A stretch of 64,000 nt of DNA from Marsupella aquatica (Eukaryota > Plantae > Marchantiophyta), in NCBI GenBank assembly GCA_973895155.1, contig OZ316892.1, positions 22,545,168 to 22,609,167 of the forward strand, read 5' to 3'. The position numbers were made by a program, and so were the translations under genes. Positions 2,963-46,845 of this stretch are shown here, piece after piece (the first letter of the stretch is position 1; every line of letters begins with the position of its first letter). Below the pieces are notes generated by a model. It worked only from the letters and a program-made list of their open reading frames with translations. It was not told the DNA's origin and did no database searches.

Positions 2963-4812
2963 TCATTCCCTTTCCTTGTTTTCCTTGCCAACCCCTTCCA
3001 AAGCCTGGGAAACAATTTGTGAATTAATGAAGACCACGATTAGCCAAACATAACGACGTGCAACCAAACGAGACCCCCTTGACAGCAAGAATGGAATAAT
3101 CTACACAAAACTCTCAATTGAGACGTGTTTCCACCGAACAATGGTTTTTAACGAGCTTGTGATATGACCAAGTTAACAAATAAAATTTCACTCATCCTAC
3201 CAATCCTGCTTTAACATCCACGGGACATTTGACTACATGGCAGTATAGGAGAACAAATACACCATTCTAGAAGCTGTAGCGGCTGTTCTGATTTGAGTAT
3301 CACAACAAGCATACAATTCGATCAAGGCAAACGCCCATTTCTGGAGTCCAACTTTAATAGTTACAAAGGTAGAGATAAACTTACAAGAATGAGTTTTTGT
3401 ACTCGGTTTGTCTGGGTTTTTCTGTGTGGGCGAACACTCTCATCTGACTGCTCAACATCAGTCGAAAGACATCAAAGTTTCGTCAGGATTTCCAAACCCC
3501 AGAGTTCTAAACTTACTCTAAGTGGCTCACACTACACCTCCAGGCCATCTCAATGCATAAAGGATGAAGGGCGTCTTCGAGGTGTACCTGAACGCCATCA
3601 ATTTCTAGTTGAACTTGGGTCAGGAGCTCCAGCAACCTTAAATGCTCCTGGAAGGCGATTAAGGAGATTATATTATTGTCTATTATTGTCGACACGAAAC
3701 ATAACTATTCAAATAGATAAATCTTCAGATCAACTGCTGAAGGCAATCAACTCTGAATGAAGCACATACAATATGTGTAGGATAACTAGCTTCTGAACAG
3801 CTTAACGTAGTCCGGTGATATTCTCATTCATTAGATGCTTCAAATTGAAGTCCACCTTATCAACTTCACTAATATGAATTAAGTGAGCAAACTTTGTGTC
3901 AGCCACTAAATCGTAAGCAGACATTCTGAAATGAAGATTCAAATGAGGCCAACATTGGGCGTCAGGCGGGTTTGACAGACCTTCTCCTCTGTCGAATTCC
4001 AAGTCTCGAGGTCTTTCACTTGAGCAAAAAACTGGGATGCCTCCTCTTCTAGCTTGTCGACCTGAAGCCCATACATACCCAAAAAAACCCACCAAGATCA
4101 TTGGCTTGCAAAGTTGGCATCAATTCTTCGCCGCTAGACCATTCTAGCGTTAGTTCCCAGCATTGAAGTGCTCAACGCTTTCCCTCATGCCTCACTGCAT
4201 AAGCAACCACGCAAACTGCCGACCAATTGAAGACTTTTGGAAGCTTGTGTAATTTAAAGAAGCAGGTTCAAATTTTGTTCTTCTCCAGCAATGGATTAAT
4301 TTTAATTTGAACAGCAAAGGCTCAACTATAAATGTGAATTTTGGGTGTCAAACTCAACTCAACTGTAGGAGATACCACCCTAGTTACATGACATAAGGAA
4401 CAAACTAATCATTAATAATATAATATAATCTGGCACGACTAGATCATCAAAGGACAGGTGCATGAATGGACGCACGAGGAAAACTCCCTCAGTACAAGAC
4501 TAGCTAAATTCAGAGGTTATCATGGTGCCACACCTTTCTGGCAAGAAGGAGGATTGAACCCAATGGCGTGGGTTTGGCACTCGCAGGACTGCTAGAAGCC
4601 CCATTCTTCAGCCTTGCTTCTGCAGCCTCTGCTCTCAGCATTCGAAGTTCTGCCAAGCTCATGGGTTGATTCCCCTGCCGGCCCACAATGTCGTCCCCTT
4701 TGCCATTGCTGTTGTCGGAACCGCTGCCTGGATCCTCAGACGAGGGGGCCCTTTTCTTATAGTTTCCGCCAAGACGCCTGTCTATATCATACAATCTTGC
4801 TTCAGTCGTCAT
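2963..4812 (-). CDS. BAG-domain (Hsp70 co-chaperone-like) protein, about 174 aa, 5 exons
   Basis: Minus-strand exons 4812-4534, 4061-3981, 3647-3588, 3447-3385 and 3004-2963, all GT-AG in phase 0. The C-terminus VDKLEEEASQFFAQVKDLETWNSTEEK-EHLRLLELLTQVQLEIDGVQ-SDESVRPHRKTQTNRVQKLIL-ALEGVGKENKERE* fits the three-helix BAG pattern (ELLTxxxLxxDGV...RxxRK...VQ). Confidence 0.8.
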
Positions 4813-5513: not shown

Positions 5514-6504
5514 CCTTCCCTTGCCCTCCCTCCCCTTCCCTACTCTTCAGGGATTCAAAATCCCGCTGTGCAACACAAAGCTTATTAGTATCCCTAGGGG
5601 ATGGTCGCTTTTTGCCTCCCGTCGTTTCCGATCCTCTGTTGAAGGGTTAAGAGAGGGACAAACCTTAAGTGCCTACCCCTTGCAGAAATAAGAATCTGCT
5701 GCCCAAAGAATTGAATTGCTCATATTTCAGCAAGGGAATGATGCAGTTCAGAAGCCCCAAGGGCGGGAGGCTTGCCCTTGACAACATTCACCCATCCATT
5801 CCCTTCCCTTCCCTCAGGTTTTCCACTCCTTCCTTGCCTCTGATTCTGATTCATCAAATTTCAAATGCTACTAGACATAACAAGCTTCTCCCAAATTCTA
5901 CAGATATCGGTGCTGCTCCAACGAACTCAGGGTAAAGCACAATGACGTAATTAGAGCTCGCAGGATACCCAATCGAGCTCAGCTCAGCTCTGCTCAGAGT
6001 TTTGAAAGGGGAAACGGTTCACAGTAGAATCTCCAAATCTAGACAGATTGGGAACAATTCATTCTCCGAAAAGTGAAAAGCAGTAGAAAACCACGTCAGA
6101 CAGCCAACCAACGTCCTGTTCTGTCCTAGCAACACGAAGGCACTCTAATTTTCATCACCATAACTGACATCAGATCTCAACCATCCGCAGGTACGACATC
6201 ACCATAAACCCAATCAAACTTCAAAACTACAGCTCATCTCGGATTGGATGCATTCCACAGTAGGGTAGAAGGATGCTGCTCGGGGTTGAAGCACTCACGC
6301 TACAGGGTTGTCCGTCTTTCTCTCCATTGATTGCCTGCCATGGAGTGAGTCCTTCGATCAATCTGCTCTCTTCTCTAGGCTGACTGCTGCCGCGCTTTCG
6401 ACCGACAATTGTTACACGCACAAGCTCCAGTGCCGTCAAAGGGAGAGGGAATCGTTGGGCTACAAAGCAGATGTGGTGCACGAGATGGTGGACGAGCACC
6501 TGCA

Positions 6505-7800
6505 GCGATGGAGGCAGAAGACCAACATTTTCCTCTCGTCCTCAAACGTGCGCTCCGTCGACATTGATGGATTTTGTAGAGTCACCCATGGGTTAGACGG
6601 GGTTTGTTATCTAACTACGGGTACTGTTCAGTCTAACCATAAGTGCGTGGGTAACTCCAGGCTAGTAGCGTAGGCCCCTAATACTAGAGCACTTCCTTTT
6701 GTAAATGCATCCAAAAATGTAAGTGCAAGTTGACTATGAGAGTGATGGATGTTGAACAAAGATGACATTTACAATGGCAAGCTTTTGATCATCCAACAAA
6801 CAAATAATTAACCCTGAGATATGTGTTTCACATCAACTGAGGTTATGCCACGTCAACTGAGGTAATGTCCATGGGATCACACAAGATCTTTATCATATTA
6901 GGCCCGTTGGTCATATCGAGCCTCCGTAATACAAATTCTCTTTATCTCACAACTGGTTTTATAACAATGAGCCTCAGTTTCTATTATCCACACATACATT
7001 GTTTGGAGAGATATTAGTAGTAGTATGGCTAACCTAACCAAGTCCGTGACTAAATTTAGCCCCAACTATGATTGCAATCCTAAGTTTAGACCTAAGAGTA
7101 ATTGCCTAACAATGGAGGCAGGAGACCGACATTTGACTCCCGTCGCCAAAGGTGTGCTCCGTATTGATGGATTGTGTAGGGTAACCCATGGGCTAGACAG
7201 GGTTATCTAACTACTATACAGATTGCCATGCAAAAGTGCATCATGTATATAACAACATTATGTGGGTAACTGGAGGCTACTTCTATAGTCCCCTAATATT
7301 ACAACACTTTCCTTTGTAAATGCACAAAAAAATGCACTTCTGTAAGTGCAAGTCAGTAGCCAGCTATGGAGGCAGGAAACCAACATTTTCCTCCCATCCC
7401 CAAAAGTGTGCTCCACACCATTGCCGGGTACATCGTAGCACCTTTGGAGTGTCACCGCACTTGACTAGACTGTACTTTTCATTGCTCACTACCATTGTGT
7501 CATAGAACTTAACTGAACTTTTCATTGATCACTTACTGTTTTTTTTCCATATGCTCTATTTATGTTATTTTATTCACTTACACATCACTACAAGATACAC
7601 ATCCCTACAAGACAAAATATCAAGCATGTGCTTGACAAAATATGAATTTCGAGGATGAACAAATGAATAACAAATAGTGAATACTCAAAGTACATTTTTG
7701 TCGATAAGAGTGCACATGCATTCATGAGATTGTGCAGGGTAATCCATGGGCTATAGAATCACGCAACACGAGATGGAAGCGGGCAGAGACCGACTGCTTC
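6505..7800. repeat. Diverged dispersed repeat module (2 long copies plus partial copies) in the divergent intergenic region
   Basis: An ATGGAGGCAG(A/G)A(G/A)ACC(A/G)ACATTT motif occurs at ~6508, ~7112 and ~7366. A downstream GCTCCGT..ATTGATGGATT.TGTAG.GT.ACCCATGGG.TAGAC..TTATCTAACTAC block occurs at ~6550 and ~7155, with a partial copy at ~7728. Confidence 0.7.
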
Positions 7801-12705: not shown

Positions 12706-14529
12706 TCTTTCTGAAGGCGAAATATCCAGGGGCAGATTGCTTGGTTTTCGTTTGCTGTGATCGTCTTGGTTTGTTCTCGAAAACCTCCTGTTGTTTTCCC
12801 ATCCTCATTATATCAAGGCACAGACCTCTTCGTTTTTTCACTTCCTTCAAGGCACAGAGGAAGCTTTCTGTAAACATTCGTCCTGCAGAAACCCTGACCT
12901 AAGTGACGGGTCATGAAGAGTAAAAACTGGATCAATAACTTACGCCGCTAACAATTGTATTATTGGGTCGGTGCCATGCCAATGACGTGTAACACTAGTT
13001 TGATTATTGTAAGGACTTAGGGGGAGGGTTGAGTAGGAGGCGAGGGTGGTTCAGGAAGGGAAAGCTGCATGTCGTTGGATGGAGAAAATTGCCAAGATCA
13101 AGGGCGCACTTTCTTCAGGAAACTACAACCAAGACGTCGTTGCGTGACTAGAGTACGTCAGCGGGAAGTAGTGGCTGCGTGACAGGATCGAACGATCACT
13201 AATCACCTCCCTTTCTGCAACAAAGATAGCCAGATTACTGTCCCAATGTTGAGAGGAACAAATGGTGAAATTTGGTTGTGAGATTCCAGAAGAGAAGCAA
13301 AGCGTTAAAAATAGAAGAATTGGTGAACTTCTTCTGACCTATCAGTACCTCCTCTTCCAGTACTGAGAGAAACATGAGTGCTTGACAGATTCCGGGATAA
13401 GTACAAACGAAAATGCAGTGGACCTACCATTTCAGCATTGACTCCTCGAGCAGGAAAGGGGAAGTGCAATCTGAATCCCTGTTCACAAAAGGTCCTGTAG
13501 GGATAGACGTTGTCATATTGGGAACTGATTTTTGAGAGCCCGGTTAGAGGAGAGAACTGCCACAGTGCAGACTCTTGCCTCGACTCTTGGCAATAGTCTT
13601 TATCCTGTGGCTGAATGTGGTAGATGAAAAAGGAGGTAGGAAGTTTGCCAACCATAGGTTAAAGGGGCAAATCCTGAAGTTTTGTTGTTTTAAGTTTGTT
13701 GGTTGTGTTAGAAGGCAGGTGGAGCTCTGGACAATTGCACCAGAAGGGTTATTTGTTTCAACTCTCAACCAGGAGAAACTTGGACTAGAGTCATGATATA
13801 CATGAGCTACAACTCTCGAGATGAAAAGAAAGGAGATTGTGGTGCAGTGATTTTCATCGTGAAGGCCTTTGCACAAGAGGGTGACAGACTGGAAAGCTCT
13901 TGATTGCCTATCGTCAAAGTTTCTGATCCTTGAAGAGAGGACGGGTGAGATGATACATGAGCATTTAAGTTTTCACTCTACTAGTAACCTACAGCCATTA
14001 TACAGGCATTTGTGGTTTTATAATCTCATAGGAGGAGTCAAAACAGCCTGAATAGCCTTGTTGCTCAACTGTTGATATGCCACCTAAGCAGGTTGAGATT
14101 TTCCCTGATTTTTAGCCTATCAGAATTGAATCTCCCCCTTTTGAGGCCTTTTGGTTCCCTGGCAACTGTAATTTATCATTGTGTGCAGTGTTTCTCTGGT
14201 CTTTTCTCCCTAATTGTGTTTAGTTTGTTTTGTGACCAAGTGGCTGTTTACATGTACATATTCTTTATAGGTTTCCCATTTTATATCTTTTGGCTTGCAC
14301 ATGGCTCATTCACTACTTTCCCAAAAGTAACTCACCACTTTTTAAGTTGTATTATGTTATCATGTCATTGGGCCCTGGCTGTTCTTTATTTAAAGTTTTC
14401 TTGGGCGTGTTCAATTTGAAATATTGTTAAGAAGGGAAGAGATCCTTGGAGCTTGCGCACCTGGGGGGGGGGGGGGGGGGGGTTCAGTTTACATTTTCAT
14501 ATTTTTTAGAATTTCTACAATTAGGTCAA

Positions 14530-14886
14530 TGTCATGCCGAGGGACAGTGCCTCTTATGCACATCAGCATGTCCCTCTCATGCCCGCTAGGTATGTAGTTA
14601 GGGCTAGTGTACTACCTGAGTTAGCGACATGTTCTTGTAGCAAGTCTGGGCCGTTCTTGAAGCAAATGTGCTTGTTAGTGTGACGCTAGGACTTTGCTTG
14701 CTTAGGGCATGTCTTTCTTTGTTGGTTTTTAGTTCTTCTTGAATCGTTGTTGACAGAGCTCAGACAGTGTTCGTCAGTTCCGTACACGGGATTCACACAG
14801 TGATTCATTAGATGCTCCCGGCCGATCTTGGCATCCTGCCGGTTTCGATTCGATTTCAGTACATTTGTTTCTCTTACGCCTTTTAT
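14530..14886 (+). repeat. Terminal repeat A1 (357 bp)
   Basis: Matches 23550-23906 with 5 substitutions, all transitions. Confidence 0.95.
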
Positions 14887-15946
14887 TCAAAAAGAACTCT
14901 GGAGTTGGCGGTGAGGGGAAGAAGATAGAAGACATTCTTGTCTCAGCTGCTTATGTCGGTTCAAACAATTTCTGTCAAAGCTGGTGCAATTTCTTTGAGC
15001 GACAATGGAGGGACGAGTTGAAATTATGGGTTCAATATGGTGTTAAGTGTATACTTAACATAAGTATACACATAACCCTCCCGTTGGAGCCTGACTCTTT
15101 CTTCCCGGTTGTATCCGGGGACCCTTTGCTGCTTCCGACTATGGCTGCCGGCTGCTGACTGCCACTACCTTTTTCGGGCCAATTTTGTGATGTTTTTGTA
15201 GGAGGGGCTATCTGCATAGGGCCGCGCGCCCCTTCTCGGGAGTCACAATTTCACCAGGGCACGAGGCCCACAGAACCTTTCAGGAGGGGAGCGAGTGTGC
15301 CAGATGATCATTAAGAGGGCGAAGGGAATTTCCTTTCAGGAGCTCATAAGGAGGGGGAGGGGGCGCGAAGCCCTATGCAGGGCTCGAGCCCATAAAGAGG
15401 GGCCCATTTTTGCTCACTCGCCTCTTCCTGCCACCCGACTGTCAGTGGCCAATTCTCCCTTTTCCGGTTATTTTCCACCTCTCGACATTTTCTTCTCCCT
15501 GCCACCGGCCTCGGTGTATACACATACGGGAGTGCATAGGGCCGCGTGCCCTCCCTACTACTCCCTTCGACACTTTTCCCGGCTGTGACCTCCTTCGGGC
15601 TGCGATTTACTGTACTTCTTTCCGGCCGCGACCTGCTTCCGGCCAAGTTTTTCCCCCGGCCGCAACGACTCCAACAAAGGGAGCCGCACCGACATTGGGC
15701 ACCGGCCGGTGTATCTTACGTGTATACACATAAGGGAGGGGCCATTTTGTTGTTTTTATTCCTTTTTATTTTGACCCTCTTAGGCAAGGCCGGCATACAC
15801 ATAGGGGCCAATTTCATTCTCTTTAGCCCCGGCCTCCTTGCTTCACGCCGTTTATTTTATTTGTGGGTTTCACTTCCTAGCCTTGGGGCTTCCACTCCTT
15901 TTCTTGTTAGTTTCTTTCCCATCGGCACCCCGGGTGAGCATGCAGC

Positions 15947-17221
15947 ATGTCAGCAGAGGAGCCGAGTCGTAGCAGCTCATCACCACCAACACCCCGGTAC
16001 CACTTACGAAGTGATCCACGACCATTGGTGCCAATTTCATTGGAGTCTCGGCAATTTCGGCGACGTCAGCAAACAACAGCAGCACCCACACCACGCAATC
16101 CTTCTGCTACATTTGGCGGTCGCTCCACCTCTACCCTGAAGCCTGCTATCACTTCTTTGCCCTTTACTCCTTCTGCATCAGTGATTGTTCCAGCTTCACC
16201 GACATACAGCATGGATGCCAGTCACTCATCTGGCCGCATTGAGCGCTTCAGTGGGCGGCCAGGCACTGTTTCTTTGCGTGAGTTCAAATCCACTTTCTAC
16301 ACTGTCGTTTACGAATTGGAGCTGAAGTACGGCAGCAATTTCACAAATGCTTTTGCATTTAAGCAGCTAGCCAGGTATGTGCACCATGAGGCTTTGGATG
16401 TGTATGAGCAGCACTCTCAATGGCTGCTTGCTGTCACACAATTGCCTAACCCTACCTATGCCAATGCAATTGCGACAGCCTCACAATTGGCCTTACAGAA
16501 TGCCATTGCAGCCCATGCTGTTGCTCCTGCCATTTCCCCTCCTACTCCAGTTCCTACCACTGCGCCAGTTACTCCCACTGTCTTGGCACAGGCTACATCA
16601 GGCATTTCTCCCACCATTGATTCTCCTGCCTTTGCTGATCCAGTCACTGAGTTTTTCCAGGTTCTTGAATTGGAATTCCCAATCAAGAGTGCTGACAAAA
16701 TCATGCAGTTGGCCACCTTTGTGAGACAGCGCGATGAAACATTGAAGATGATGTATCGTCGGCTTCTCAAGCTGAAGGAGGACACCCAGAGCATCACTGA
16801 CCTGGAAGCTGCTCATCGCTATCTTCGCGCATTGGAGGGCACACTAGCTCTCCATTTGCAAGTGTTGCAGCAAGTATTCTCAGAGTTTGGAGACAGCTAC
16901 ACCCTGCTCAATGTCTATGACACTGCTGAGAAACTTGAGTTGGCCCATGCACATTATGAGGCCAGTATTGCGCGTCCACCGCAATCCAGGTACCAGGCTG
17001 CTGCCCCTACACTGGCCACCCCTTCCCGTGTGCCACAGTATGGTTCCAAGACCAAGCCAGCCCATGCTGCTTTCATGCTGCCATCTTGCAACTACTGTGG
17101 TAACCCCAATCACAAGGCTAATGAATGTGATATTGTCGCTGAGGACCTATCTTGTGATTTTTGCGGGAAAGTAGGTCACTTGGAGGCAGTTTGTTTTGCC
17201 AAATTCTCGGAAAGGAAGTAG
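15947..17221 (+). CDS. Retrotransposon Gag with two CCHC zinc knuckles
   Basis: IERFSG capsid-like start; knuckles CNYCGNPNHKANEC and CDFCGKVGHLEAVC. Ends at a TAG that is followed in frame by the next ORF. Confidence 0.85.
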   Translation: MSAEEPSRSSSSPPTPRYHLRSDPRPLVPISLESRQFRRRQQTTAAPTPRNPSATFGGRSTSTLKPAITSLPFTPSASVIVPASPTYSMDASHSSGRIERFSGRPGTVSLREFKSTFYTVVYELELKYGSNFTNAFAFKQLARYVHHEALDVYEQHSQWLLAVTQLPNPTYANAIATASQLALQNAIAAHAVAPAISPPTPVPTTAPVTPTVLAQATSGISPTIDSPAFADPVTEFFQVLELEFPIKSADKIMQLATFVRQRDETLKMMYRRLLKLKEDTQSITDLEAAHRYLRALEGTLALHLQVLQQVFSEFGDSYTLLNVYDTAEKLELAHAHYEASIARPPQSRYQAAAPTLATPSRVPQYGSKTKPAHAAFMLPSCNYCGNPNHKANECDIVAEDLSCDFCGKVGHLEAVCFAKFSERK

Positions 17222-17272
17222 CTACGACAGCAGGCCCCTCATCCTGCTCCTGCTTCCACTCCCCCACCAGCT

Positions 17273-20160
17273 ATGAGGGCTCCTACTGCATCCGAGACTG
17301 CATCAGTTGCTCCTCCTTCCAGTGGCAAAGCACCCAGTGCCAACAAATTGCCCAAGCAGCCACAGAAGCAACCAGCTCAGAAGGAGGCTCACAACGCACA
17401 GGCAACTCAACTCCAGTCTCTGACTCATGAGGTTGAGTCCCTACGTGCCCAACTTGCCAACATCAAAGGCAAGTCAACTGCCTCTACTGGTCCTTCTCAA
17501 CCGGCTGGTCACGTGCAACCCATCCCTGGCCCAGGCACCACTGACAGTTCAGCACCTCTACCCCGCTCTTTCTATGGCTTGCCATTTGATGCTCATATGG
17601 GTGAGTGTGTGTTGTCCTCTGCTACACAGCCTGGCCTTACAGCAGAATTTTCAGATTCATTCTGTCCTTCCTATTTTGCTTACCAGCAGGCCAGTGCTGC
17701 CTCCCGTATTGCTCCCACACGCCGCATTGTACAGGCTGATGGTCTTGCTGCTGGCCCTATGACTAGAGCGAGGGGAGCTCGGGCTGTCATGCCCCAATCT
17801 TTTCAGCCACTCACACTTGCTGAAGAGCGCACCTTGTTGGCGAGGGGGGAGGGAGCTGCAGCTACATCCATTCCACCACCAGGTGCTGCTGACATTTCAC
17901 AGGGAGTTATTTCTCCTGAGCTGCTTGAGCATTTCACCTCCGGTATGGCACAAAAGATTCTTACAACTCCACTTTTTAGTTGCCATAATTTACAGCTGGA
18001 TGCTAGAGCTGTCATGAGAGCGCTAGAGGGCTCATTGCATTCTTCATCAGCTCCTGTGCCACCAGTTTTGGAGGTCCCATCTCATGTACATACTGGACCT
18101 TCTTCTTCTCCATTGCATGCTTCCATTGGTTTGGCTATCCCAGTACCAATTTCTAGTGGTAGAAATGACAGTATTGCTGCAGATTGTGTGACCAGAGCTA
18201 CACTTGATTCTGGTCATGCTGCTCCATCTTTCCTGGCTATGCTGTTGAGTGGGAAGACCGTGGACACTAACTCCCTTCACAAGGTACCTCATCATTTGCC
18301 GAAAGTGGTACCTAGCGACAGGACTTTAGTTTCCACCACCATTGCCATTGTTGACAACAGGAATTCAGTGGTCAAGTTGGAGGGTCACACTCCTCAAGTG
18401 GTCATGCTAGACATAGGTGCTCAACCAGTGATATTGGGCATTCAGTTTGCCAAGAAGATGGGACTGTTGACTGATCATTTACAACAATCCAAGTGGCACA
18501 TTCGGACTGCTAGTGGCACTGTGGAGGATGTGTTGGGTGAGAGCTCTACTTTACTCACTCTCACTTTTAATGGAGGTACTGATCAGGAACTGCATTTCCT
18601 GGTCAGATGTTTGGTTACCAATGCCACTACGTATGATGTGCTCATTGGCCAGGAGGCTTTGTTCCCACCAGGTTTTACCATTGACAACTGGCATGAGCAT
18701 GCATACTACAGAGTTGATTGGCATACGGATGGCTCACACTTGGGCTACATTCCACTTGATTTGCATGGTGCCCATACACCTATGGCTCACCACTGTGTGT
18801 TGAAATCGGTGCACACAGCTACCTATGTCAACCACCCATTGCAGGATTGGATTGAGGAGGATGATGATGAGGTGGCTGCTGCACGTATAGCAGCACTTTC
18901 CAGCAATATGGATCATCAACCAGAGGTGGTACAACGGCTCCAAGCAGCCCATGGACCTTTGGTGGCTACATTGCGCAAATTTGAGGACCTTGGGCAGCAC
19001 AATGGACAACCAATAGCCCCAATCTTGAGCGCACCAGTTACATGGACTCCTCCTCCGGATGCCCTTACATTGCTTGAGCTTTTTGGTGGCATTTCTACAG
19101 GCCTGGAAGCTCTCCTACAGTCCGGCATGGTGGTGAAGCAGTACATCCACGTGGACATTGATCCAGGTGCAAGGCAAGTGGTTGAATCCCGTCTGCTGGA
19201 ATTTTCAGAGCGATTTCCTCAACAGTTTCCACACAGTGCCTGGAAGTCTGAATTTTCTTTCTTTCCTCCAGATATCCAGCTTGTCCAGCACCGGCACTTA
19301 ACCCTTCTTGGCTCCCTTGATTTGATAATAGCCGGTTGGGAATGCCAAGGGTTTTCAGCTGCTGGTCATGGTGCTGGATTGCATGATTCTCGTTCTGGCC
19401 TTTTCACAGCATTGGTTCAGGTTATCACCTGGGCTCAATCCCTTTACCCTGTTGTTGGTTATATCATTGAGAACACTCCATCTCAGTTTGACCAGCGTTC
19501 ACAGGTCAAAGAGGATTTCAGTGTGGTCCAACACTACTTTGGACCACCCCTTCTCATTGATGCAGTGCATTGTGGTTCTTATGCACATCATCTTCGTAAC
19601 TTTTGGACTAACCTGGTACCAGTTTCCTTGCTGGAGTTAGCTCTTCACCACACATCCAGGGACACTAACCTCATAGTGGACCAGATTTTGGATCCTGACA
19701 GTTCTTGCCAACCAGTTACACGGCAAGAGCCAGCACCTTGGTATCCAGCCAATACCATTGGACAGCCCCGTGCTGCTTGGCCTACATTTGTGTTCTTTCC
19801 AGGTGCACATGCTTTTCAGGGTGATGGTCCTGGCCTGGTTTATCAACATTCTACCGGTACATGGGATGAACCTAGTCCTGAGGAGAGAGAACAGGCTATG
19901 GGCTTCCAACCCGGTACTACAGGTCACACCAAGATCACCAGGTTGGCCAGGAATGCTTTACTTGGCAGGGTAATGGATCTTAATGCTCTCACTTGGCTTC
20001 TGGTTACTTGCATCCTTTTTCAGATGTACATTCATCCAGCATCAGGAGTTCCAGCCCTACCACTCCATGGTGCTGCTCCATGGCACCCAGACCAGGTGCA
20101 CTTACCTCTATTCAACACTCACCGCTTCAGTCCAAGTGTTGGGGGGGAGGAGGTCCCTTG
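17273..20160 (+). pseudogene. Pol N-terminal part: aspartic protease (~18390-18700) plus DNMT3-like C5 cytosine methyltransferase (~19064-20000)
   Basis: Protease motifs VMLDIGAQ (canonical DTG; D at 18410) and YDVLIG. DNMT motifs: I LELFGGISTG, II VDID, IV DLIIAGWECQGFS (Cys at 19343), VI YIIENT, VIII AHHLRNFWTNL, IX EREQAMGFQPGTT, X ARNALLGRVM. Confidence 0.85.
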
Positions 20161-20268
20161 TAATGTGGCTATATTATTTCTGAGTTTCATGGTGTGGATT
20201 AGACCAGAGCAACAGATACAGCAGGCCTTGGAGAGGCCTCATCACCTTATCAGCAGCATGCTAGCAGC

Positions 20269-23200
20269 TTGGCCAGTGGAGAGGCTGGCACTTATGGCTC
20301 TTCAAGCACGAGTACATCAGGTCCTATTCCTAGTGTTGCCAACTACACATTCATCATGGGCAACCACCTGAGTAAAAGACAGAAGGACCAGCTGCTGAAT
20401 TTGCTCCTCAAGCATGAGAATGTGTTTGCTTTCTCTATGAAGGACTTGGGTAAGTGCAAGACTATGCAGTTCTCCATTGAGTTGGCTGATGAAACACCTA
20501 TCTTCAGGCGGAGACACCGTTTGAGTAAGCATGAGTGGCAGCTGGTGGATGAGAGATGCCAAGAGCTCTATGAAGCTGGTCTTATTCAGCCATCTACATC
20601 AGATTTTGCAGCAGCTACAGTGATGCCAGCAAAGAAGGATTTCAGTGGATTGTGGTCAGAGAAGCGCATGTGTGGGGACTACAGGCCACTGAACCTGGTC
20701 ACACCCCAGGACAGGTACCCCATGCCACGGCCATAGGAGCTATTTGACAGCATTGGAGACTCAGACATCTTCACTCTTGTGGATCTAAGGCAAGGCTTTA
20801 ACCAGATTTTGCTGCTTGCAAAGGACCGCAAGAAAACAACTTTCCATGGTAGTAACCAACTATGGGAGTGGTTGGTGATGCCATTTGGCTTGAAGAATGC
20901 GCCCATATTCTTTCAAAGAGTCATGGACCAGGTTCTTCAAGGTGCTGAGTTTCTGAAATGCTACATTGATGATGTGTTGGTCCACAGCAAAGGATTTGAC
21001 CAGCATCTACTTGACCTTGAAGAGCTATTCATGAGGCTTAAGAAGGTGAACCTAAAGATACACCCCAAGAAGTGTGAATTTGCTGTCAAATCAGAAGTAT
21101 ACCTTGGGCACCGCATTCTTCCAAATGGAACCATGGCTCACTGGGCCAAGGTGGTATCCATCTTGGAAATGCCCACTCCTACCGATGTTCACACTTTGAG
21201 GAGTTTTATTGGGTTGTGCAATTACTACCGGATCTACATCAAAGATTTCAGTACCATTACACACCCATTGTATGCTTTGTTGAAAAAGAATGTGACTTGG
21301 ACATGGAGTACAGATGCTGAGGCAGCATTTGCCACTTTGAAGGAGAAGCTCTCAGAATACCCGGTGCTGAGAAGACCTGATTTCAGCAAGGTCTTTGTGC
21401 TACACACAGATTGGAGTGCCCTTGGGATTGGTGCCATTCTGGGCTAGCATGATGAGGAAGGTAAAGAGTACGTCATTGCCTATGCATCCAGGAGCAACAA
21501 TCAGGCAGAGAGTCATTATTCTTCTTATGAGGGTGAATGCCTTGCTGTTGTGTGGGCTGTCATACATTATAGGCCCTACCTCTATGGGACCAGGTTTGTT
21601 CTCTACACCGACCACCAGCCCTTGAAGTGGTTGATGACCAACGACAAGCTTACTGGCAAGCTTGCTCGTTGGGCGCTCATACTCCAGGAGTATGATTTTG
21701 AGGTAATTCATAGGCCTGGTGTGACACATCAGATTGCTGACACTATGTCCCACAGCCCTTTGATTACCTTTGATGATTCCTCAGATGCACGGCAAGATTT
21801 TGACCAGGTTTCTATCCTGCCTACATTTCATGCATCGACCTATCTTGCTTTGCTGCCATGCTATGTTGTTGACCAACCTGTGGTGGACATATGGGAGGAC
21901 AGCGACACTCTGAGATTTCTGCAGCATGGGGAGTACCCCACACATGTTACTACTGCCCAGAGAGACCGAATTCAGCAAAGGTCCAAGCGCTACTTGTGGA
22001 AGGGAGATCATCTCGTGCGCTGCTTGCCAGACAGGGAAGTGGTGGTTCCACCTATTCATGAGAGGGTTGGCCTTATCCATAAGGTACATTCTGAGCTTGG
22101 TCATTTTGGTGTTAAGAGGACTTACAGCCTCTTGGTCCCTCATTATCATTGGAGAGGCATGCATGGCCAGGTTCGAGATGTTATTGCCCGGTGTGATCAG
22201 TGTGATAGGGTGAGGACTTCCTTCACATCTCGACAACCCACACTTCATCCACTCCCTATTCAGGGCATGTTTTATCACTGGTCATGTGATTTGGCTGGAG
22301 AATTACCCCTCACATCTCGGGGTAATCTCTACATCATGATCATGATAGAGCATTTCTCAAAGTGGATAGAACTTGTGGCATTGCCGGATAAGACCTCCCG
22401 TAGCACCAGCCAGGCATTCCTGCAACAAGTTCTCAACCGCTTTGGAGCTTGTGCAGAATGTCTCACTGACCAGGGCTCAGAGTTTAGAGGAGAGTTCTAG
22501 GAGCTGCTTGATCAGGCCCTCATTGATCATTGTCGGACATCACGAGATCACCCACAGGCAGATGGCTTGGCAGAGCGCATGGTTCAGACATGCAAGAAGG
22601 GTCTCCGGAAGATTTGCCTCACCAAAAACAAGGAGGATTGGGACCTGGCCTTACCCTACATTGCCATGGGGTATAGGATGTCTAGACATGCATCATTGTC
22701 TAACTTTTCTCCCTACTTCTTGTTGTTTGGTCGTCACCCAGTTCCACCTTCTGCTATTGCTGCTCACATGCTTCAGGTGGTGGACTTGGATTCAGCTGTG
22801 ACTTGGTCTGATGTGATCTCTGAGAGGGCTGCCCTATTCAGGAGGGTTATGCCCATGGCCATGGAGAATTTGGCCATTGCACAACACAGGGACACACTGC
22901 GTTATGCACACACACGAGGGGGCACTTTTCAGCCCAAGGTCAGGAAGTTTGATGTGGGAGATTTTGTGTACTTGCAGCAGCAAGCTAACGACACCCTGGA
23001 CACCTCTACCAATCGTACTATTCTCAGGGTTAAAGCTATTCGACCGTCTGGAGTGCTAGAGTTACAAGGGGCAGATAGGCGCACAATTGCTGACAATGCC
23101 AAGAATTGTGCCCCTTGTCATCTGCCTAACCTAGATCCCACCATTGTGACTTCTACCTGGATTCCACCTGTGGACTACCCTTGTAAGGTGTGTTTGCGAA

Positions 23201-23334
23201 TTGATGATGCTGACCAGATGCTGCTGTGTGACAATTGCAATGGAGGGTACCATCTTTTCTGCCTTCGGCCTGAACTTACCCAGGTGCCAGAAGGGTTATG
23301 GTTTTGCCCTTCCTGTGCTCCACGTGCTACCTGA
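20269..23334 (+). pseudogene. Pol C-terminal part: RT, RNase H, integrase and PHD finger, in one frame with 3 internal TAG stops
   Basis: RT: RMCGDYRPLN, DLRQGFNQI, MPFGLKNAP, YIDD (20962-20973). RNase H: TDWS, YASR, ECLA, TDHQPL. Integrase: H-H-C-C (HSELGH...CDQC) and D-D-E (CDLAG, TDQGSEF, GLAER). PHD C4HC3 at 23182-23316. Stops at 20734, 21445 and 22498. Confidence 0.92.
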
Positions 23335-23372
23335 ATTTTCTTCAGCCCTCCTTTTGGCTGTGGTCTGGGGGG

Positions 23373-23547
23373 ATACAGAGGTTTACACCTCCACTACGTA
23401 CATACCACTTCATTTGCTTTTTCTTGGCACTTGTGAATGTGATTGGACTTTTTCTATGCATGTTGGTTGCTAGCAGCTTGCACATATGCCTTGCCGGTGA
23501 CTGTATGTTTTCGATACACTATGGCTTCGATACTATATGTCACGACA
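23373..23547 (+). repeat. Terminal repeat B1 (175 bp)
   Basis: Matches 23907-24081 with one mismatch. Preceded by a G6 run and ends CACGACA. Confidence 0.95.
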
Positions 23548-23549
23548 GC

Positions 23550-24081
23550 TGTCATGCCGAGGGACAGTGCCTCTTATGCACATCGGCATGTCCCTCTCAT
23601 GCCCGCTAGGTATGTAGTTAGGGCTAGTGTACTACCTGAGTTAGCGACATGTTCTTGTAGCAAGTCTGGGCCGTTCTTGAAGCAAATGTGCTTGTTAGTG
23701 TGACACTAGGACTTTGCTTGCTTAGGGCATGTCTTTCTTTGTTGGTTTTTAGTTCTTCTTGAATCGTTGTTGACAGAGCTCAGACAATGTTCGTCAGTTC
23801 CGTACACGGGATTCACACAGTGATTCATTAGATGCTCCCGGCCGATCTTGGCATCCTGCCGATTTCGATTCGATTTCAGTACATTTGTTTCTCTTATGCC
23901 TTTTATATACAGAGGTTTACACCTCCACTACGTACATACCACTTCATTTGCTTTTTCTTGGCACTTGTGAATGTGATTGGACTTTTTCTATGCATGTTGG
24001 TTGCTAGCAGCTTGCACATATGCCTTGCGGGTGACTGTATGTTTTCGATACACTATGGCTTCGATACTATATGTCACGACA
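23550..24081 (+). repeat. Terminal repeats A2 (23550-23906) and B2 (23907-24081)
   Basis: A2 is a copy of the 5' end of the element and B2 is a copy of 23373-23547. Together they run TG...CA. Confidence 0.95.
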
Positions 24082-27000
24082 TCAAGTGCATGTGGGTGCA
24101 AAACATGCTAAACCACCCTGGGAAATTTCTGACCTTGGGCATGTTGTTACCATCACAATTTTCTATATGGTCTCATTTCAGGATTAGGGCTACCCTACAC
24201 ATTTCAACCATTAAAATTCTAGACGTAAGTAATGGACGATGAAGTCCTGAATAAATAGGCCTAGCAGAAGCACTCCAGCCCTAGGGAGCCATAGTACTCG
24301 GAGCTAGCAATTGAAGATGTCTCCGAAGAGAGCTCAGCCATTCGTGCGGAGCCACCATTGGAGTCACTAGGCAGAGCCATTTGCATCAACAAAAGTGGAT
24401 GCACAACATAGAGCGGGCTCAACTTTTATTAGCTCAGGGGTTCTTGAAGAAAGAGTGCCATTGGTGGAGTAGTGTTGAGCTAAGACATGTCACCATGGCA
24501 TGCACATGAACATCCAACAAACAAGTAGTCAACACAGAGAGATATGTGATTCATGTTCTTTGAGGCTACGTTCACCCAAATACCCCGGCAAACACATGAA
24601 AGCTTTACTACACTCTATACCCATTGGCCCTGGGGGGTCACTTCCACTGAAGTGACATTCACGTGCAACAAAGTTTAGAGTCATTTAAATGGTTTTGACG
24701 GAATACTTATTAAGTTTTCATTCAATGGAAATATATGGTTGTTTAATTTCAAAATGCATATGTGTCATCCCATGATTGGTGTTGTACAACATTATATATA
24801 GTGACTTAGAGGGGTCATAACTGACCCACACTTTGGCACATGATGTATGGCCCTCCATATAATGAACCGACCCACCCCTTCCCCCCCGGCCTTTTGAGCG
24901 TTGGCCATACCAAATCTTGGTAGCATAAGCCCTCTCTATCTCTCAACTGGCTCCGTCACAATGAGCTTGAGTTCCTCTTCCACAAGCAAACACTAATTGG
25001 ATATATAGGATGCAGCATGGCTAACCTAATTAAGTAGTCCACTAAGGTTAGCCTAATTGCAGCTACAGCCATAACCCTACACCTAAGAATAAATGCTTAA
25101 CAAGTAGGCCGGGTATGAGGCTTCTTGAATCAAAAATGGAGTGTTCACCCATGCACAGAACCAAGACTCCAAGTAATTCATGCAAGCATTTTTGTTTGAG
25201 GTGAAAATTGGGTAGATTCCACCTCTCCAAAAGTATTTGCGACTTTTGGCAAACTTTGGGTAGGTTTCCTAACTTCATTATCTTGTTGCACAGACCCATT
25301 AGCCAAAGTTTAATGATCATCCTTAGATCTAAGAAGATCTGACGGTCCACATAATCTAAGAAAATTAGAGAATGAATATTCTTAGCATCTTCTCCTCCAC
25401 ACAAGGGCGACACTTGCCACACCAACCAAAAACAAGAAATAATAGTAAGCTCGCTCATGCCATCAAGCTAGTAAATTGAAAAGTGGATGTCATCCAAGGT
25501 ATTTAAAGTTGGGATAATTCATTTGTCTGTTGAGCAAACCCAATACAGCAATTTTTTAATTTTATAAAACCGAAGTCTGTGAAATCCCACCTAAAAAGAA
25601 CACTCAGCCACAACATTTGAAGTTTGGATCTATGAATCTCAACTCAAGTGAGTTACAACACACACACATGCCTATCTAGGAGCCAACACAACAATTTGAA
25701 CAGGGATAATTAACTCCTGTGTTGGGCAAATCCAATACAAGAATTTGAGACTAACACAGCAAATTTGAAGATACAATAATAATACAATACTCCAGTCAAG
25801 AAAATTATTTGGTGGGATCCCACATAGAGCAAAACCATAAAGCCCGCACCACACAAGAACGTCGCGCAATACAGGATCCACCAAGAAAGGTTTTGAAATG
25901 TCTGCAACACCAAGAAGTTTTGAGCTGTGCAGGGTCTCACGAAGTAATTTCCAGTTTTGGGCTGTGTAGGGTCTCACCAGTAATTTCCTCTACTTACTTC
26001 ACTGGCAAACATAGATCATATCCACAATGGATACGATCTTATCTACGAGAAAAACTCTTCAGCATTTGGGGGATTGAATTTTTGGTTTGGGGGATTGAAT
26101 TTTTGGTGTGTAGGAGAGGACTGGGGCATTTCTAGGCTATATAATTAATGCTACTTATGTAAATGAAACAAAATTCTGTAGACCATTTTTCCTGCAGAAC
26201 ACCACACGGGAGTACGCTTCATATCTCGCTCGTGTGATCATTTACTGTTTGCCAAAATAACGTAGGAGTGTCTTAAAATACCCGTGACTTCAATCAGAGA
26301 ATCAACGGCCTAATGAGTCCCCAGAAGAAAGGGCATCACTTGGACCGTCGATTGGATCTCCCCCCACAGTAGCAAGCGAGCTCAGTTTAAGAACTCCCGC
26401 ACCCCGAGTGGAATATTGTCGCACTATTTATTACAGTAGCAAAGCCCGACCGCTGCCTCGGTAGTCACAAGTACGGTTCGTACCTGACCCCACGGGGCAC
26501 GGGCTACAGGGTCCGAGCCCAGACAAGATTGATGACGCTGAGTTAAATGAGCGTCACGCTTCATACGAATCCGACGGCGCTAAATGCATATTTCTTCAAC
26601 CCGCCTCTGCATCGGGCGGCACAGATGAACCGGTCAACTGAACCCGCACGACGCCTCGTTACATCTTAACTCGACATCCCCTGCCCGACGGGCGGTCGGT
26701 CGTCTTTAAGGACAAAACCACTGCTCCGCTCATTTAGGGCCCTTTATGAAGGGATGGTGCCTTACATACCGTAGTAACTAGTAAGTGCCGCCGTGACCAG
26801 AGGCAGAGGAAGCAGAGCAGGCAGAGGACGAGGCGAGGGCTCCAGACTACAGAGCCCCCGGGTCCAGGCGTACAGGTACAGAGTGTGCCAAATACGGTAC
26901 TCCAGTGCAGAACAGAGCAGAGCAGCGCTGAGGCGGAACAGAGGAACAGAGGCATTGCACCAGACGAACAGAGTCGTATGTTATTACTACTGTACTGTGG

Positions 27001-27940: not shown

Positions 27941-29889
27941 AGTAGAGTTGAGGTCACACGTGTATCTGGTCTGATCTTTGATCTTCCAGCAGCGAGAGAG
28001 GGAGTGATTGGGGATATGGGTCTTTCATCACGTGAAGAAAGGGGGATTGTGATTTGAGTGTGGCTCAGTGGCTGTGTCACTTTGTGCAGTACGGCGAAAA
28101 ACTGGCAGAAGTGTTGAGAGAGCGCTATTGCGTTGGTCATGGAGGATAGAGTCTGCAGCAGTCCGTCTGTCTGAGCCGTCCTCCTCTCGAACGGCCACCC
28201 GGTGTTGTGTGGTGTGGTGGGCTAAGCGAGCGAGCGAGCGAGAGCACGCACGCACTCAATCCATCTATCAATCAATCAGGGAAGCTGGGTTCCGGTCGGC
28301 TTGTACCGTAGAATTGATGTATGTCCCTGTAGTCCAGTAAGCCACACACTCCCCTCCCGTGCTTCTTTTGTGATTGAAATACGCGTCCGTATCTGGGCAA
28401 CGTGAGGGTACACCGACCGATCTTGGAGTCACTCACTTGCTGCTGCTGTTGTACCCGAACCGAAAGTTGAATAGAATCGGAAGGATCTGGCTGGTGGGAC
28501 GCGCGTCCCTTCGCAGGAGCAGAGGACTTGACTGGACTGGACTGGACTGCTTTGCCTTGAGGGATCTGCCGCTAGGTACGACGCGATCACTGCTAGATCA
28601 AGACGCAACGTGATAGATTGATTGATACGCGCGACGCTGCAACTGAATGTAGTATCGGTTTTGACTTGCAGAAAGGATCTGCTCTGCTTCTGCAACACCA
28701 GAATCGAGCATTCTGTGGTAGGTTCTTACTTTCTCCGGTGCATATCTATGTCGCGCTGCTGCTGTCGTCGGTTAGGGGCTGTGCTGCGGGTTCTGCAGCA
28801 GAGGCCATCTTTCTTGCCAGATAACGTGAAGGAATTCACCACAATCGCAGTGTTGGTGAGTATTCTTCTTCACCCTTTCATTCAGTCAGCTTCTGTTCTT
28901 GATATATCCATCCATCTCGCCCACTCAAGAGAGGAATAGAGAGTAGAAGCCGAAATAGTATTCCACACCGGTGATGGTTGGGATTACTGGTATCTATCAG
29001 TTCGTGATACTCTGTTTTGGATGTGTCCTGAGAGGGACAAGAATGGCATCCGTAGAATAGAATCTGTCTATTGTGAAGTGTTCGAATAGTCAGTCAGTCA
29101 TGGAGCCGGTCCATCAAGCCGTTCTTCTCAGTATGACGGTGTGCTCCGATGTCATTCGTTAGTTTTGAGCATTACAATGAATTTCCTCGAGTGGGTGGGT
29201 GTTTAAGTACATTTGGGTAGTGGATGAAGTTATCTCTCCTGTGCGCCTGCACCATCTGTCAGTAGTTGTGCTCTCCTACCGATTGTAGCGGCTTCTCAAG
29301 GGCCGTTAGACTTTGTAATGCTGTAGTGGCTGGAGACGGTTGTGTTTTGTCGTTGTCCATGACCTTGGTACATTCGAGGGTATGAGATCGGGATTTGCAA
29401 GAGCTGACTCTTGGAGGAGTCAGTGAGCTCTGGGAAGCTACCAGATTATTGGGTGAATTTTGGAGTAATTATTTGACAAATTTGATTGTATTTCGGTTTG
29501 TGCTGCTGCGTAAGGCAGCAAGCAAAGCCCCCCTCGGAATGCTGGTTGAATGTAGTAATCAGGTCGAGGCAGAACTTTAGCTGGGTGTAAGATTTCAAAC
29601 TGCGAAAAGAGGATGAACATTTGGCACGTCAGTCAAAAGAGAGCTGAAGAACTCTGAGGAGCTGGATGGCGTGATTTATCGGCTACATTTGCGAACGGCA
29701 ATTTGGCCACCGAGGAGCTAAAGGCCGTGATTGATTGACTGCATTTGGGACGGCAAATTTCTTCTCACTGAAATGAATCAATAAAGTAGCAGCTGAGTCG
29801 TGTTTGCTGTATGTGTGCGTGGTGGCTGACTCAACAGGTGACACGAAGTAGAAGCGAGTATTGGCGGGATTCGACTGTCGGGAGATAAG

Positions 29890-31077
29890 ATGAGACAGAC
29901 AGACAGAGAGACAACAATGAGGGAAGTGCTCCTCATCGATGGTGAACATACAGAAGATCAAATGATGGATTCGTCCCTTTGGGGTAGTTTGCCCGACCAT
30001 CTGGTGGAGAAAATTCTGTCCCGACTTCCAGTCCAAAGCTTCTCTCGCTTCAGAACCGTTTGCAAAAGCTGGAACGAACTAGTCCACTCTCGGAGCTTCC
30101 TCAAAGCCTGCGAAAATGTCCCATCAGCGGGACCTTGGTTCCTCGTCTTTACAGGTGACAAGAACAAGACCGAACCGACCTACGACCCCTCTCTAGATAA
30201 ATGGCATCGGATACGCCTCCCATCCCTCCCTCTCCAGTTCGACCCTTTTATCATGTCATCCGATGGGGGACTGATCTGTTACTACACCTTCGAAGGTTTC
30301 GTCGTGGTTCTGAACCCCTTGACCAAGGCCTGCCGCTCCCTTCCTCCCATGGAGGCCTCTCTGGCCTGCGTTCACATGATATGTATGGTGACAGACAGGG
30401 CAACAAAGAGCTATCAGGTCTTCGTGGCAGGCAGGGCAAGGAACGAGGAGGGAATGTACATCATTGAAGTGGAAGTTTATGACTCTTGTAACGATTCGTG
30501 GTACAGCGTAGGCAATTTGTCCTCGAAGATTAGCATCATCCGGAACCAAGGAGGGCGAGGGGCCGTTTATGCCAGTGGATGTGTTCATGTCATTTGTTAC
30601 GATGAGCCGAAGGGTTTACTGGCCTACAGCTTAGATGACCACGTCTGGACTCGGATTGCCACTCCGCTTCCGGAGTCCGTTTCTTATGAGGAGTTGGTGC
30701 AGTGGCGAGAACGGATTTTCATGGTTGGTGGTCGGGAAGATGGTGACTTGATCGCCAGTATCTGCATTTGGGAGCTTCACACTGCCAGCTGGGAGTGGAT
30801 TCTGGTTGACAAAATGCCGGACGATCTGTTCCAGGATTTCTTCCTGCCTGATGAAGCGGACGACGTCTCGCTAAGCTGCACGGGCTGTGGGAATTTAATT
30901 CTTCTTCTCTCTACGAAAGCAACTGTGGACTGCTCTGGCCCACACCGGCATGTCCTGTACGACTTTGAAAAGAGACAGTGGACGATGGTGCAAGGGTACG
31001 CACCGGATGAACACATCATGGGGTCGGGTAGCTCCGAGGCCATCGGATATGAACCTCGTCTGGATGCCGTTGTCTGA
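29890..31077 (+). CDS. F-box protein with kelch/beta-propeller-like C-terminus (single coding exon, about 395 aa)
   Basis: F-box LWGSLPDHLVEKILSRLPVQSFSRFRTVCKSWNELV, followed by YDPSLDKW, SDGGLIC, VLNPLTKACRSLPPM, EVYDSCNDSW and a C-terminal YEPRLDA typical of plant F-box/kelch proteins. The start could be a downstream Met. Confidence 0.92.
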   Translation: MRQTDRETTMREVLLIDGEHTEDQMMDSSLWGSLPDHLVEKILSRLPVQSFSRFRTVCKSWNELVHSRSFLKACENVPSAGPWFLVFTGDKNKTEPTYDPSLDKWHRIRLPSLPLQFDPFIMSSDGGLICYYTFEGFVVVLNPLTKACRSLPPMEASLACVHMICMVTDRATKSYQVFVAGRARNEEGMYIIEVEVYDSCNDSWYSVGNLSSKISIIRNQGGRGAVYASGCVHVICYDEPKGLLAYSLDDHVWTRIATPLPESVSYEELVQWRERIFMVGGREDGDLIASICIWELHTASWEWILVDKMPDDLFQDFFLPDEADDVSLSCTGCGNLILLLSTKATVDCSGPHRHVLYDFEKRQWTMVQGYAPDEHIMGSGSSEAIGYEPRLDAVV

Positions 31078-43066: not shown

Positions 43067-43520
43067 CAGTTTTTTACTAATCTATCTCCCAAACTATGCT
43101 ATATTACTGATTGCACCCCAAAACAAAATTAATTATCAACCTGCCCCTTATTTCATATTCAGGTTAATATTAACTTGTACACGGGTTCTTGTTGCCATGT
43201 GGCAAGTTGCTACTGGCCAGCCTCAACAAGCCGGGACCCCCCTTCTCGTGCAGGGCACAGTCGTAGGTCTAGGAGGGGCAAAAACATGTCATTTTTTGCT
43301 CTGCCCCCCTCACAAAAACCCAACACTTTCGGTCATCATTTTCACTCAGGAAAATGCAGCTGGTAAGGGGAAGGAGGACCAATTGGGGTTGCAACGGGAT
43401 AGCCAATAGCAACTTGCTACATCACAATCGGAATCCGTACATGAGTTATTACTATCCCGAATACAAAATGGGGGGTGGGTTGATAATTAATAGTGTGGGT
43501 GGCACGTTAGTAAAAAGCTG
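43067..43520. mobile_element. MITE/foldback-like element with long imperfect terminal inverted repeats
   Basis: Ends CAGTTTTTTACTAA and TTAGTAAAAAGCTG. ~43128-43222 (ATTAATTATCAACC...GCAAGTTGCTACTGGC) is inverted relative to ~43400-43492. AAA lies on both flanks. Confidence 0.7.
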
Positions 43521-43779
43521 AAACTGTAAATGGGCACGGGTACACACCCCATCTAATTAAAAGACAGCTCAGGTATTTAAGCTAGGGTTATGATCGGAGT
43601 AGGGTAAGCAAGGAAAAGATGCATTAGATGGTAGTTTCAATGGTCTAATGCATCTTTTCATGGGTTGGATCCTTCTATCAATTTTTGAATATATTTTTCT
43701 CCAATATGTTAAGTGCAAGGCTGGCGACTTGAAACAACATCAACATAATGGGAGCTTAGGGTAGGGATGGAGGAATGGG

Positions 43780-44134
43780 TGTTGGGAATAAATGTAGACT
43801 ATACAAGACAACCTCAACACATGTGAACAACATCTATAGACTCTGAAAATGAAGGTATGTGGTTCACCTTGTGTGGACTATGTCCACGACCATGAGAGAA
43901 ATCTAGTAATACTCAACGTGATTACACCCGCTCCATAGCCAATAGCTAGAGTTCCTCCTCTCACCTCCTCACTCTCTCTCCTAGAGAATGAACCTTCAAG
44001 TGTGAGCACAAGTTTGTGTTCCCCTTGGGCATGGACTATGGGAACCTGGAACTCAAACTAGTGTTATCCTAGTCTACTAAAGTCTAGCTAGTACTATGGA
44101 AGTAAGTAGGTTATATTATAGGCATAACCTAACA
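43780..44134 (-). mobile_element. Solo LTR (355 bp), opposite orientation to 47483-47840 (strand assignment is relative only)
   Basis: TGTTGGG...CCTAACA ends. Flanks ATGGG and AGGGG give a 4/5 TSD match. Alignable along its length to the reverse complement of 47483-47840. Confidence 0.75.
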
Positions 44135-46084: not shown

Positions 46085-46845
46085 ATATCTATTATATAAT
46101 GTCATCTTTTGGGCAACGACATCTTTCAAAAAAAAACATTTGCACCACAATAGTTCTCTGCAAACAACAACTTTTATACAACAAGTGGCATTTTTATGCA
46201 AATGACCTCTTTTCTGCAAATAGCATCTTTTATGCACATAACATCTTTGGTAATTTTTGTGTAACGCATGGGTATTGAGCTATAAGTTTATATTACTAAA
46301 AGTCTACATCTTTTATGCATTGAGGTCATTTACACAATGAGACCCTAAATGCAACAAAATCTTTGGAGGAATGGCCTTGTTGTAAGTGAGGACTTCTTTC
46401 CATACCCTCTGTTGTGCAACAACTTTTGTTAGAATATTAGTGATGTCCTTTCTTCCACGATATGTTTTGCAGAATCAGATAATTTCATGAAGTCCTTTCA
46501 AGACAACATCATTTCCATAACAAAAACTTTCCCACAATGATGCCTAATTACACAAACATAACATTTTGTAATGACACCTTTTGCAGAATGACATCAGTTG
46601 TATAACAGTATCTTTTGTGCAACACACAGGTATTGAGCCAGTAATTGGAAAAAGGAATGAATAAGCATGGCCATGAGATACATATTTCCTCAATTACTTC
46701 TTTTAAGGAATGACATCTATTGTATAACAGTATCTTTTGTGCAACTGGATTTGTTGTGCAATGACCTCTTTTGTGTAACGCATGGGTATTGAGCTAGTAA
46801 TTGGATAAAGGAATGAATAAGCACGACCATGAGGTACATATTCAG
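46085..46845. repeat. Degenerate short-period repeat array (ATCTTTTGTGCAA-like units) with a ~110-130 bp duplication
   Basis: Recurrent (G/C)ATCTTTT..GCAA motifs. The block GAATGACATC...GTATAACAGTATCTTTTGTGCAAC...GGTATTGAGC.AGTAATTGGA.AAAGGAATGAATAAGCA occurs at ~46586 and ~46708. Confidence 0.55.

Follow-up and report, generated by a model that had tools for sequence, protein, structure and literature searches.

Why should a retrotransposon carry, inside its own body, its two termini joined head to tail? The question is raised by the sequence CACGACA-GC-TGTCATG at 23541-23556 of a 64,000-nt stretch of the Marsupella aquatica genome (contig OZ316892.1, forward-strand positions 22,545,168 to 22,609,167), the whole of which was analysed and is referred to here as the window. 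It is generally taught that the DDE integrases of LTR elements act at the termini of linear cDNA, and 2-LTR circles are considered by-products and usually viewed as a dead end. The analysis presented here makes the palindrome a likely candidate for the integrase attachment site of a Ty3/gypsy element, located within an LTR that is circularly permuted.

The element, of which the window contains one copy, spans 9,552 nt (~9.55 kb; 14530-24081) and is arranged A1-internal-B1-GC-A2-B2. Its features are as follows.

14526..14529, + strand: left target-site duplication (TSD), TCAA; the same 4 nt lie at 24082-24085
14530..14886, + strand: repeat A1, 357 nt, with the left terminus TGTCATG; 5 differences from A2; predicted distal U3, R and U5
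14731..14742, + strand: putative transcription start with 12-nt self-primer, complementary to the 12 nt following A1 at 11/12 positions in the window
14887..14898, + strand: putative primer-binding site (PBS) of the Tf1 self-priming type, directly after A1, from its complementarity to 14731..14742
15938..20371, + strand: gag-like region, aspartic protease (PF13975, below cut-off) and C5 cytosine methyltransferase (PF00145); in-frame stop at 17219
20203..23334, + strand: reverse transcriptase (RT), RNase H, zinc-binding and DDE integrase, PHD finger; in-frame stops at 20734, 21445 and 22498
23367..23372, + strand: G-tract, putative polypurine tract (PPT), directly before B1
23373..23547, + strand: repeat B1, 175 nt; 1 difference from B2; U3 and the linear cDNA (left end) are predicted to begin here
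23541..23556, + strand: CACGACA-GC-TGTCATG, the join of both termini; putative integrase attachment site inside the LTR
23550..23906, + strand: repeat A2, 357 nt; its end is the predicted right end of the linear cDNA
23899..23914, + strand: A2/B2 joint at 23906/23907, blunt in the window copy; probable true end-to-end (2-LTR circle) junction
23907..24081, + strand: repeat B2, 175 nt, with the right terminus CACGACA
24082..24085, + strand: right TSD, TCAA; matches 14526-14529

The internal region encodes a gag-like region, protease, C5-methyltransferase, RT, RNase H, a zinc-binding and DDE integrase and a PHD finger, the frame of 20203..23334 being shifted with respect to the upstream open reading frame (overlap at about 20203-20371). 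The gag-like region has no Pfam match and is so labelled from its position and its Cys/His motifs. The PR-RT-RH-INT domain order, the DDE integrase, the TG...CA termini and the 4-bp TSD (4-6 bp expected) are those of a Ty3/gypsy element, and the closest solved integrase is that of Ty3 Gag-Pol (E 1.4e-18). Scanning of the six main frames revealed the rve integrase and no tyrosine recombinase, and a Pfam scan found no chromodomain match after the integrase, where the PHD finger is located instead. The element does not possess two whole terminal LTRs with a PBS after the first and a PPT before the second; its LTR is permuted, with A at the left and B-GC-A-B at the right.

Named relatives of the element come from one liverwort, peat mosses and green algae, the integrase being 86% identical to that of Calypogeia and 51-55% to those of Klebsormidium (K. 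nitens); viral contigs, which were also searched, contained no useful relatives. The methyltransferase domain (19046-20065) lies between the protease and the RT. Its named relatives are from Calypogeia, Sphagnum and Closterium, and methyltransferase-bearing Gypsy elements, as identified from these sequences, thus appear to extend beyond Klebsormidium; K. nitens is absent by name from the 120 methyltransferase matches listed of 126. By its repeats the window copy is young (6 differences in 532 nt), yet it carries four in-frame TAG stops in addition to the frame shift. Programmed read-through at the gag/pol stop, as in the fission-yeast Tosmo elements, was considered and rejected, as 19 of 30 aligned relatives are open at this position.

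Near-palindromes such as that at 23541-23556 are not rare, the window containing 34 16-mers with at most one mismatched pair, which is what might be expected if the sequence were a chance palindrome in a normal LTR element or the product of a one-off rearrangement. What makes the palindrome noteworthy is that it joins both element termini exactly, head to tail: its left arm repeats the final 7 nt of the element (24075-24081), its right arm the first 7 nt (14530-14536), and two bases separate them, exactly as the earlier note on this DNA had described. A sister family was drawn from 549 metagenome matches, of which the best 80 were used (66-83% identity across the best-matching segment). Among these, twelve pairs proved to be the same insertion, giving 68 sister-family insertions, comprising 29 long forms, 26 short forms (A-internal-B) and 13 that were uninformative. 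Although A and B of the sister family do not align with those of the window in BLAST, the junction is the same, and its recurrence in 29 independent insertions refutes a chance or one-off origin. Such an origin is further opposed by the report of this layout in Klebsormidium (PMC5890265, a single legend sentence), and is given virtually no weight here.

The spacer is 2 nt long in 29/29 independent sister-family insertions, a conservation across copies that the earlier note had named as a check of its proposal. In composition the spacers are GC (8), AC (9), GT (6), AT (3) and others (3), such that 26/29 are GC or its G>A/C>T derivatives. For two insertions that were sampled twice, the two copies have different spacers, AC and GC, and an identical joint type, indicating that such variants post-date insertion. 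The G of TG is altered in 8/29 internal junctions compared with 0/23 left termini. These changes, together with the AC/GC differences, fit the decay expected of a methylated CAGCTG after insertion. By contrast, the proposal that the single mismatch of the palindrome reflects CpG decay did not survive: the mismatch is present in both A copies and both B copies of the window, and TGTCGTG at the start of A occurs in 0/29 internal junctions and 0/23 left termini of the sister family, which identifies the asymmetry as ancestral. Among 21 complete sister-family units the 4-bp TSD is exact in 14, retained at 3 of 4 nt in 4 and absent in 3.

The termini were also evaluated in the window's own family, using contigs of four runs from three organisms aligned to 23427-23960. 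Contigs switch to unrelated flanks exactly behind 23547 (at least 17 contigs in X1 and at least 9 in X2) and exactly before 23550 (at least 14 in X1, at least 15 in X3 and at least 1 in X5), and the termini are therefore precise. Behind 23906 the contigs run on into the sequence that follows A1, the first 12 nt of which are the exact complement of 14731-14742 in X1, X3 and X5, compared with one mismatch in the window.

The position of the reverse-transcription signals bears on where the ends of the cDNA lie. A G-run directly precedes B1 in 58/58 sister-family loci shown. Within A there is a site to which the 12 nt following A1 can pair at 9/12 positions or more in 20/21 sister-family copies, and a TATA is located 31-34 nt ahead of the primer site (-31 to -34) in 20/21 copies; in the window A there is no TATA at -32. 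In a control with 300 shuffled primers, 9/21 copies were never matched, while the more decayed copies often were. The primer of the sister family differs from that of the window family at two positions, and the PBS has changed to match at both. In the minimum-energy fold of the window sequence primer and PBS are unpaired; the corresponding fold of one sister-family copy, L013, pairs them. This self-priming pattern, in which primer and PBS are as read from the sequence, appears to be of the Tf1/Tcn1 type. As the self-priming site follows A1 and the G-tract precedes B1, reverse transcription probably produces an LTR of the form B-GC-A, in which the palindrome is internal, and B2 would then be a segment that cannot be copied from RNA in its place.

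The location of these signals disfavours two readings in which the palindrome marks the cDNA ends. If integration were conventional and linear, the cDNA would end GC-TGT...ACA-GC, the integrase would remove GC, and the internal copy would only supply the 2 nt. The number of bases agrees with the usual length removed by retroviral integrases (PMC1905944), and the ends and 4-bp TSD are compatible with such a route. There is, however, no priming signal at the TG/CA termini, the PBS and the G-tract marking instead the end of A and the start of B, and scars at the A2/B2 joint, described below, are left unexplained; we regard conventional integration as highly improbable. The earlier note, for its part, had regarded the palindrome itself as a copy of the circle junction, where the cDNA ends meet, and this placement is not supported: the putative PBS and PPT locate those of the cDNA at the end of A and the start of B. 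Its suggestion that the internal copy templates both termini gains support, since the palindrome sits in transcribed U3.

The A2/B2 joint displays the variation that the palindrome lacks. Classed by eye in 28 sister-family insertions, the joint is blunt in 11 and imperfect in 17. The imperfect joints comprise 6 microhomology deletions of 2 nt at the shared AT, 2 deletions of 1 nt, 3 larger deletions (up to about 215 nt), 5 joints with one extra nt (T twice, G once, A twice) and 1 that has lost 1 nt but gained a G; among the added bases, T is the first base of the PBS and G the last base of the PPT. Both families keep AT at both cDNA ends. The frequency of imperfection, 17/28 at the joint vs 0/29 at the spacer, differs significantly (Fisher p 1.5e-7). 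Variable small deletions and additions at 2-LTR junctions are known marks of end-joining. The palindrome, fixed in length in all 29 insertions, does not show the variability between events that is characteristic of a 2-LTR junction, and A2/B2 is the variable joint. On an integrase tree joint type is unclustered (17 changes vs 15.9 +/- 0.9 in shuffles), although this is a weak test as the tree is star-like with 39/53 inner branches open; one supported clade (SH-aLRT 96) contains three different joints and a short form. These patterns suggest that each event involves a fresh round of end-joining, of which the scars are the result. In the window's own family 0/12 indel rows of the contig alignment fall at the spacer or the A2/B2 joint, contigs being prone to drop rare variants, and the argument from joint variation is thus drawn from the sister family.

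The absence of listed joint indels in the window's family would suit a DIRS/PAT-like reading akin to that of the earlier note, in which RNA runs from A1 into B2, B1-GC-A2 is a stored circle junction that regenerates the termini by template switching, and A2/B2 is simply inherited. The A1-B1-A2-B2 layout is indeed that of PAT and Ngaro (PMC4157794), and both the fixed 2-nt spacer and the lack of a mirror form (see below) would be accounted for. An inherited joint, however, should not vary in 17/28 insertions, nor in three ways within one clade, and this reading leaves the primer site that abuts the A end, and the G-tract that abuts the B start, without a function. We consider it improbable, although less so than conventional linear integration. 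With respect to integration from a circle, the part of the earlier proposal that stands is an end-joined cDNA, which is likely; the part that falls is the identification of the palindrome as the circle junction, as the scars sit at 23906/23907. The earlier interpretation is thus partly supported, being right on the integrase site and the end-joined intermediate, but misplacing the junction by ~350 nt.

In the replication cycle that we propose, the RNA would begin within A1, at about 14731, and terminate within A2. Its first 12 nt would prime the minus strand right after A1 and the G-tract before B1 would prime the plus strand, as their positions, the complementarity and the compensatory changes suggest. 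Reverse transcription of the ordinary LTR type would then generate a linear [B-GC-A]-internal-[B-GC-A], with the ends AT...AT rather than TG...CA. The A end would next be joined to the B start, presumably by host NHEJ, leaving the scars that are seen to differ between sister-family insertions. Finally, the integrase would cut after CA on both strands of the palindrome in the 5' LTR, producing 5' overhangs of 2 nt that resemble a retroviral end after processing, and insertion with a 4-bp TSD would yield A-internal-B-GC-A-B. The ends and the TSD of this product are observed and the cleavage is the predicted step; the staggered cut after CA invoked by the earlier note is likely, as the ends match. 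Precedent is provided by HIV-1: in vitro its integrase can cleave both strands of an internal CA...TG palindrome, in each case after CA (PMC1905944), and its circles are reported to be able to feed integration (PMC4372172). That an internal attachment site is combined with end-joining by some route is, from the sequence evidence, very probable; the specific proposal that the cDNA is joined into a 2-LTR circle and then cut by the integrase at CA^GC-TG is advanced with less assurance, as a probable route.

The main difficulty for a simple symmetric circle is the mirror form. As a symmetric 2-LTR circle has two equal sites, A-B-GC-A-internal-B is expected to be as common as the long form; in the sister family it was found in 0 cases vs 11 long forms with both ends in view (p about 5e-4), a result that does not fit such a circle. 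Similarly, A followed by the PBS is preceded by flank in 23 cases and by the junction in 0. Either the left site is preferred, or mirrors collapse to short forms, or the joining takes another route. Preference for the left site could, speculatively, reflect earlier double-strandedness or differential marking of the two sites.

Another joining route is the essence of an alternative in which there is no free monomer circle. The integrase would cut the left palindrome in linear cDNA and insert both halves, the host then joining the free cDNA ends in the chromosome; or head-to-tail concatemers, or an end-to-end jump of the RT, would precede the cut. The same integrated structure and the same scars are predicted, an RT-linked route could favour the left site and so would explain the missing mirror form (0 vs 11), and the AT kept at both cDNA ends in both families is in keeping with it. 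Insertion followed by joining would, however, require a chromosomal double-strand break per insertion, and the clamp activity of retroviral RT needs C or G in the dinucleotide (PMC3035444), which here is AT. This alternative is judged unlikely, although it is the strongest of those considered. Returning to the 2-LTR circle, the fuller proposal is of a Ty3/gypsy lineage of non-seed plants in which the attachment site has moved into the LTR, the 2-LTR circle is obligatory, and the DDE integrase, as a site-specific endonuclease, cleaves CA^GC-TG at one of two identical sites, its choice possibly guided by marks from the element's own methyltransferase; the balance tips only slightly in its favour. 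The CAGCTG core of the attachment site is a CHG methylation context.

Short A-internal-B copies, which make up 26/55 informative sister-family insertions, have a TSD in 7/9 complete cases (6 exact) and are interspersed with long forms on the tree. Their origin may lie in 1-LTR circles, in cleavage at both sites or in B1-B2 recombination at a later time. The last would be expected to leave short and long forms of different age, and no such difference was observed between them in the sister family (median end branch 0.090 vs 0.073, p 0.33). Without a 3' R region the short form would be a dead end. Mean divergence is 0.113 for A and 0.093 for B, and the two are uncorrelated across 11 copies of similar age. 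In most sister-family copies the end of B carries a terminal 10-nt motif twice, at 15-nt spacing; the short copies L014, L068, L072, L074 and L076 end at a single or first motif. L030 contains, at about 6131-6610 (3958-4437 after the match), a blunt-jointed solo A-B unit flanked by an exact 4-bp TSD, which is either a product of A1-A2 recombination or a direct insertion of a small piece. The left end of L007 is preceded by AGC and lacks a TSD; it may be an aberrant insertion that retained the spacer.

The layout has a precedent in KnitGypsy-Dnmt3 of Klebsormidium nitens, for which DIRS-like A-ORF-B-A-B repeats are stated in one sentence of the legend to Fig. 4c (de Mendoza et al. 2018, PMC5890265). 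As described there, that element resembles the present one in its Gypsy domains, in a cytosine methyltransferase within Pol (PF00145 in the window) and in its repeats, and the K. nitens integrase matches noted above are candidates for KnitGypsy-Dnmt3 itself. A term search found no mechanism in the main text, where 'circular', 'primer binding' and 'polypurine' are absent, or in three supplementary files. Thus, the layout is already known from this legend, while a literature search, with most subscription papers, theses and Repbase reports outside its scope, found no published mechanism for the permuted arrangement. Troyka and Gypsy-7a_cRei, by the descriptions available, do not have the A1-internal-B1-GC-A2-B2 layout.

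Tf1/sushi and plant Tcn1 elements, as described in PMC6317226 and 10.1101/2022.12.06.519325, share with the window element the lack of a tRNA site, a PBS complementary to the 5' end of the RNA itself and, in non-seed plants, their hosts; here the likeness is at the sequence level. They differ in that their PBS follows a 5' LTR ending in CA, whereas in the window element the PBS follows ...AT and the CA/TG site is inside the LTR, and their integrase bears a chromodomain, whereas that of the window ends in a PHD finger. PAT, TOC, Ngaro and VIPER are split-direct-repeat elements with the same A1-ORFs-B1-A2-B2 layout, but they use a tyrosine recombinase (PMC4157794), in contrast to the DDE integrase, TG...CA ends and 4-bp TSD found here; the window element resembles PAT and Ngaro in layout only. 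Retroviral 2-LTR circles are alike in two respects that are predicted for the window element: the cDNA is end-joined, and the integrase is able to cleave both strands of an internal CA...TG palindrome. In HIV-1 the ligation joint is the cut site, the overhangs are 4 nt and circles are a side route (PMC1905944, PMC4372172), while in the window element joint and predicted cut site lie apart, the spacer measures 2 nt, and a replication-competent copy apparently requires the joining.

If this interpretation is correct, the element represents a natural high-copy lineage dependent on end-joining and internal cleavage. Each insertion would then record its own joining event, such that circles as integration precursors become testable from genomes alone. 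The permuted layout also offers a simple way for split direct repeats to arise from an ordinary LTR. Programs that find LTRs are likely to mis-annotate permuted elements of this layout.

Elsewhere in the window, long open frames at 53697-54845 (382 codons) and 57043-58938 (631 codons) have no Pfam match, and nested long inverted repeats occupy the region around 43-48 kb (43123-47842). Degenerate repeats are common to 6493-7414 and the right flank of the element (24492-25053), and an F-box/kelch-type plant gene is located at 29842-31077.
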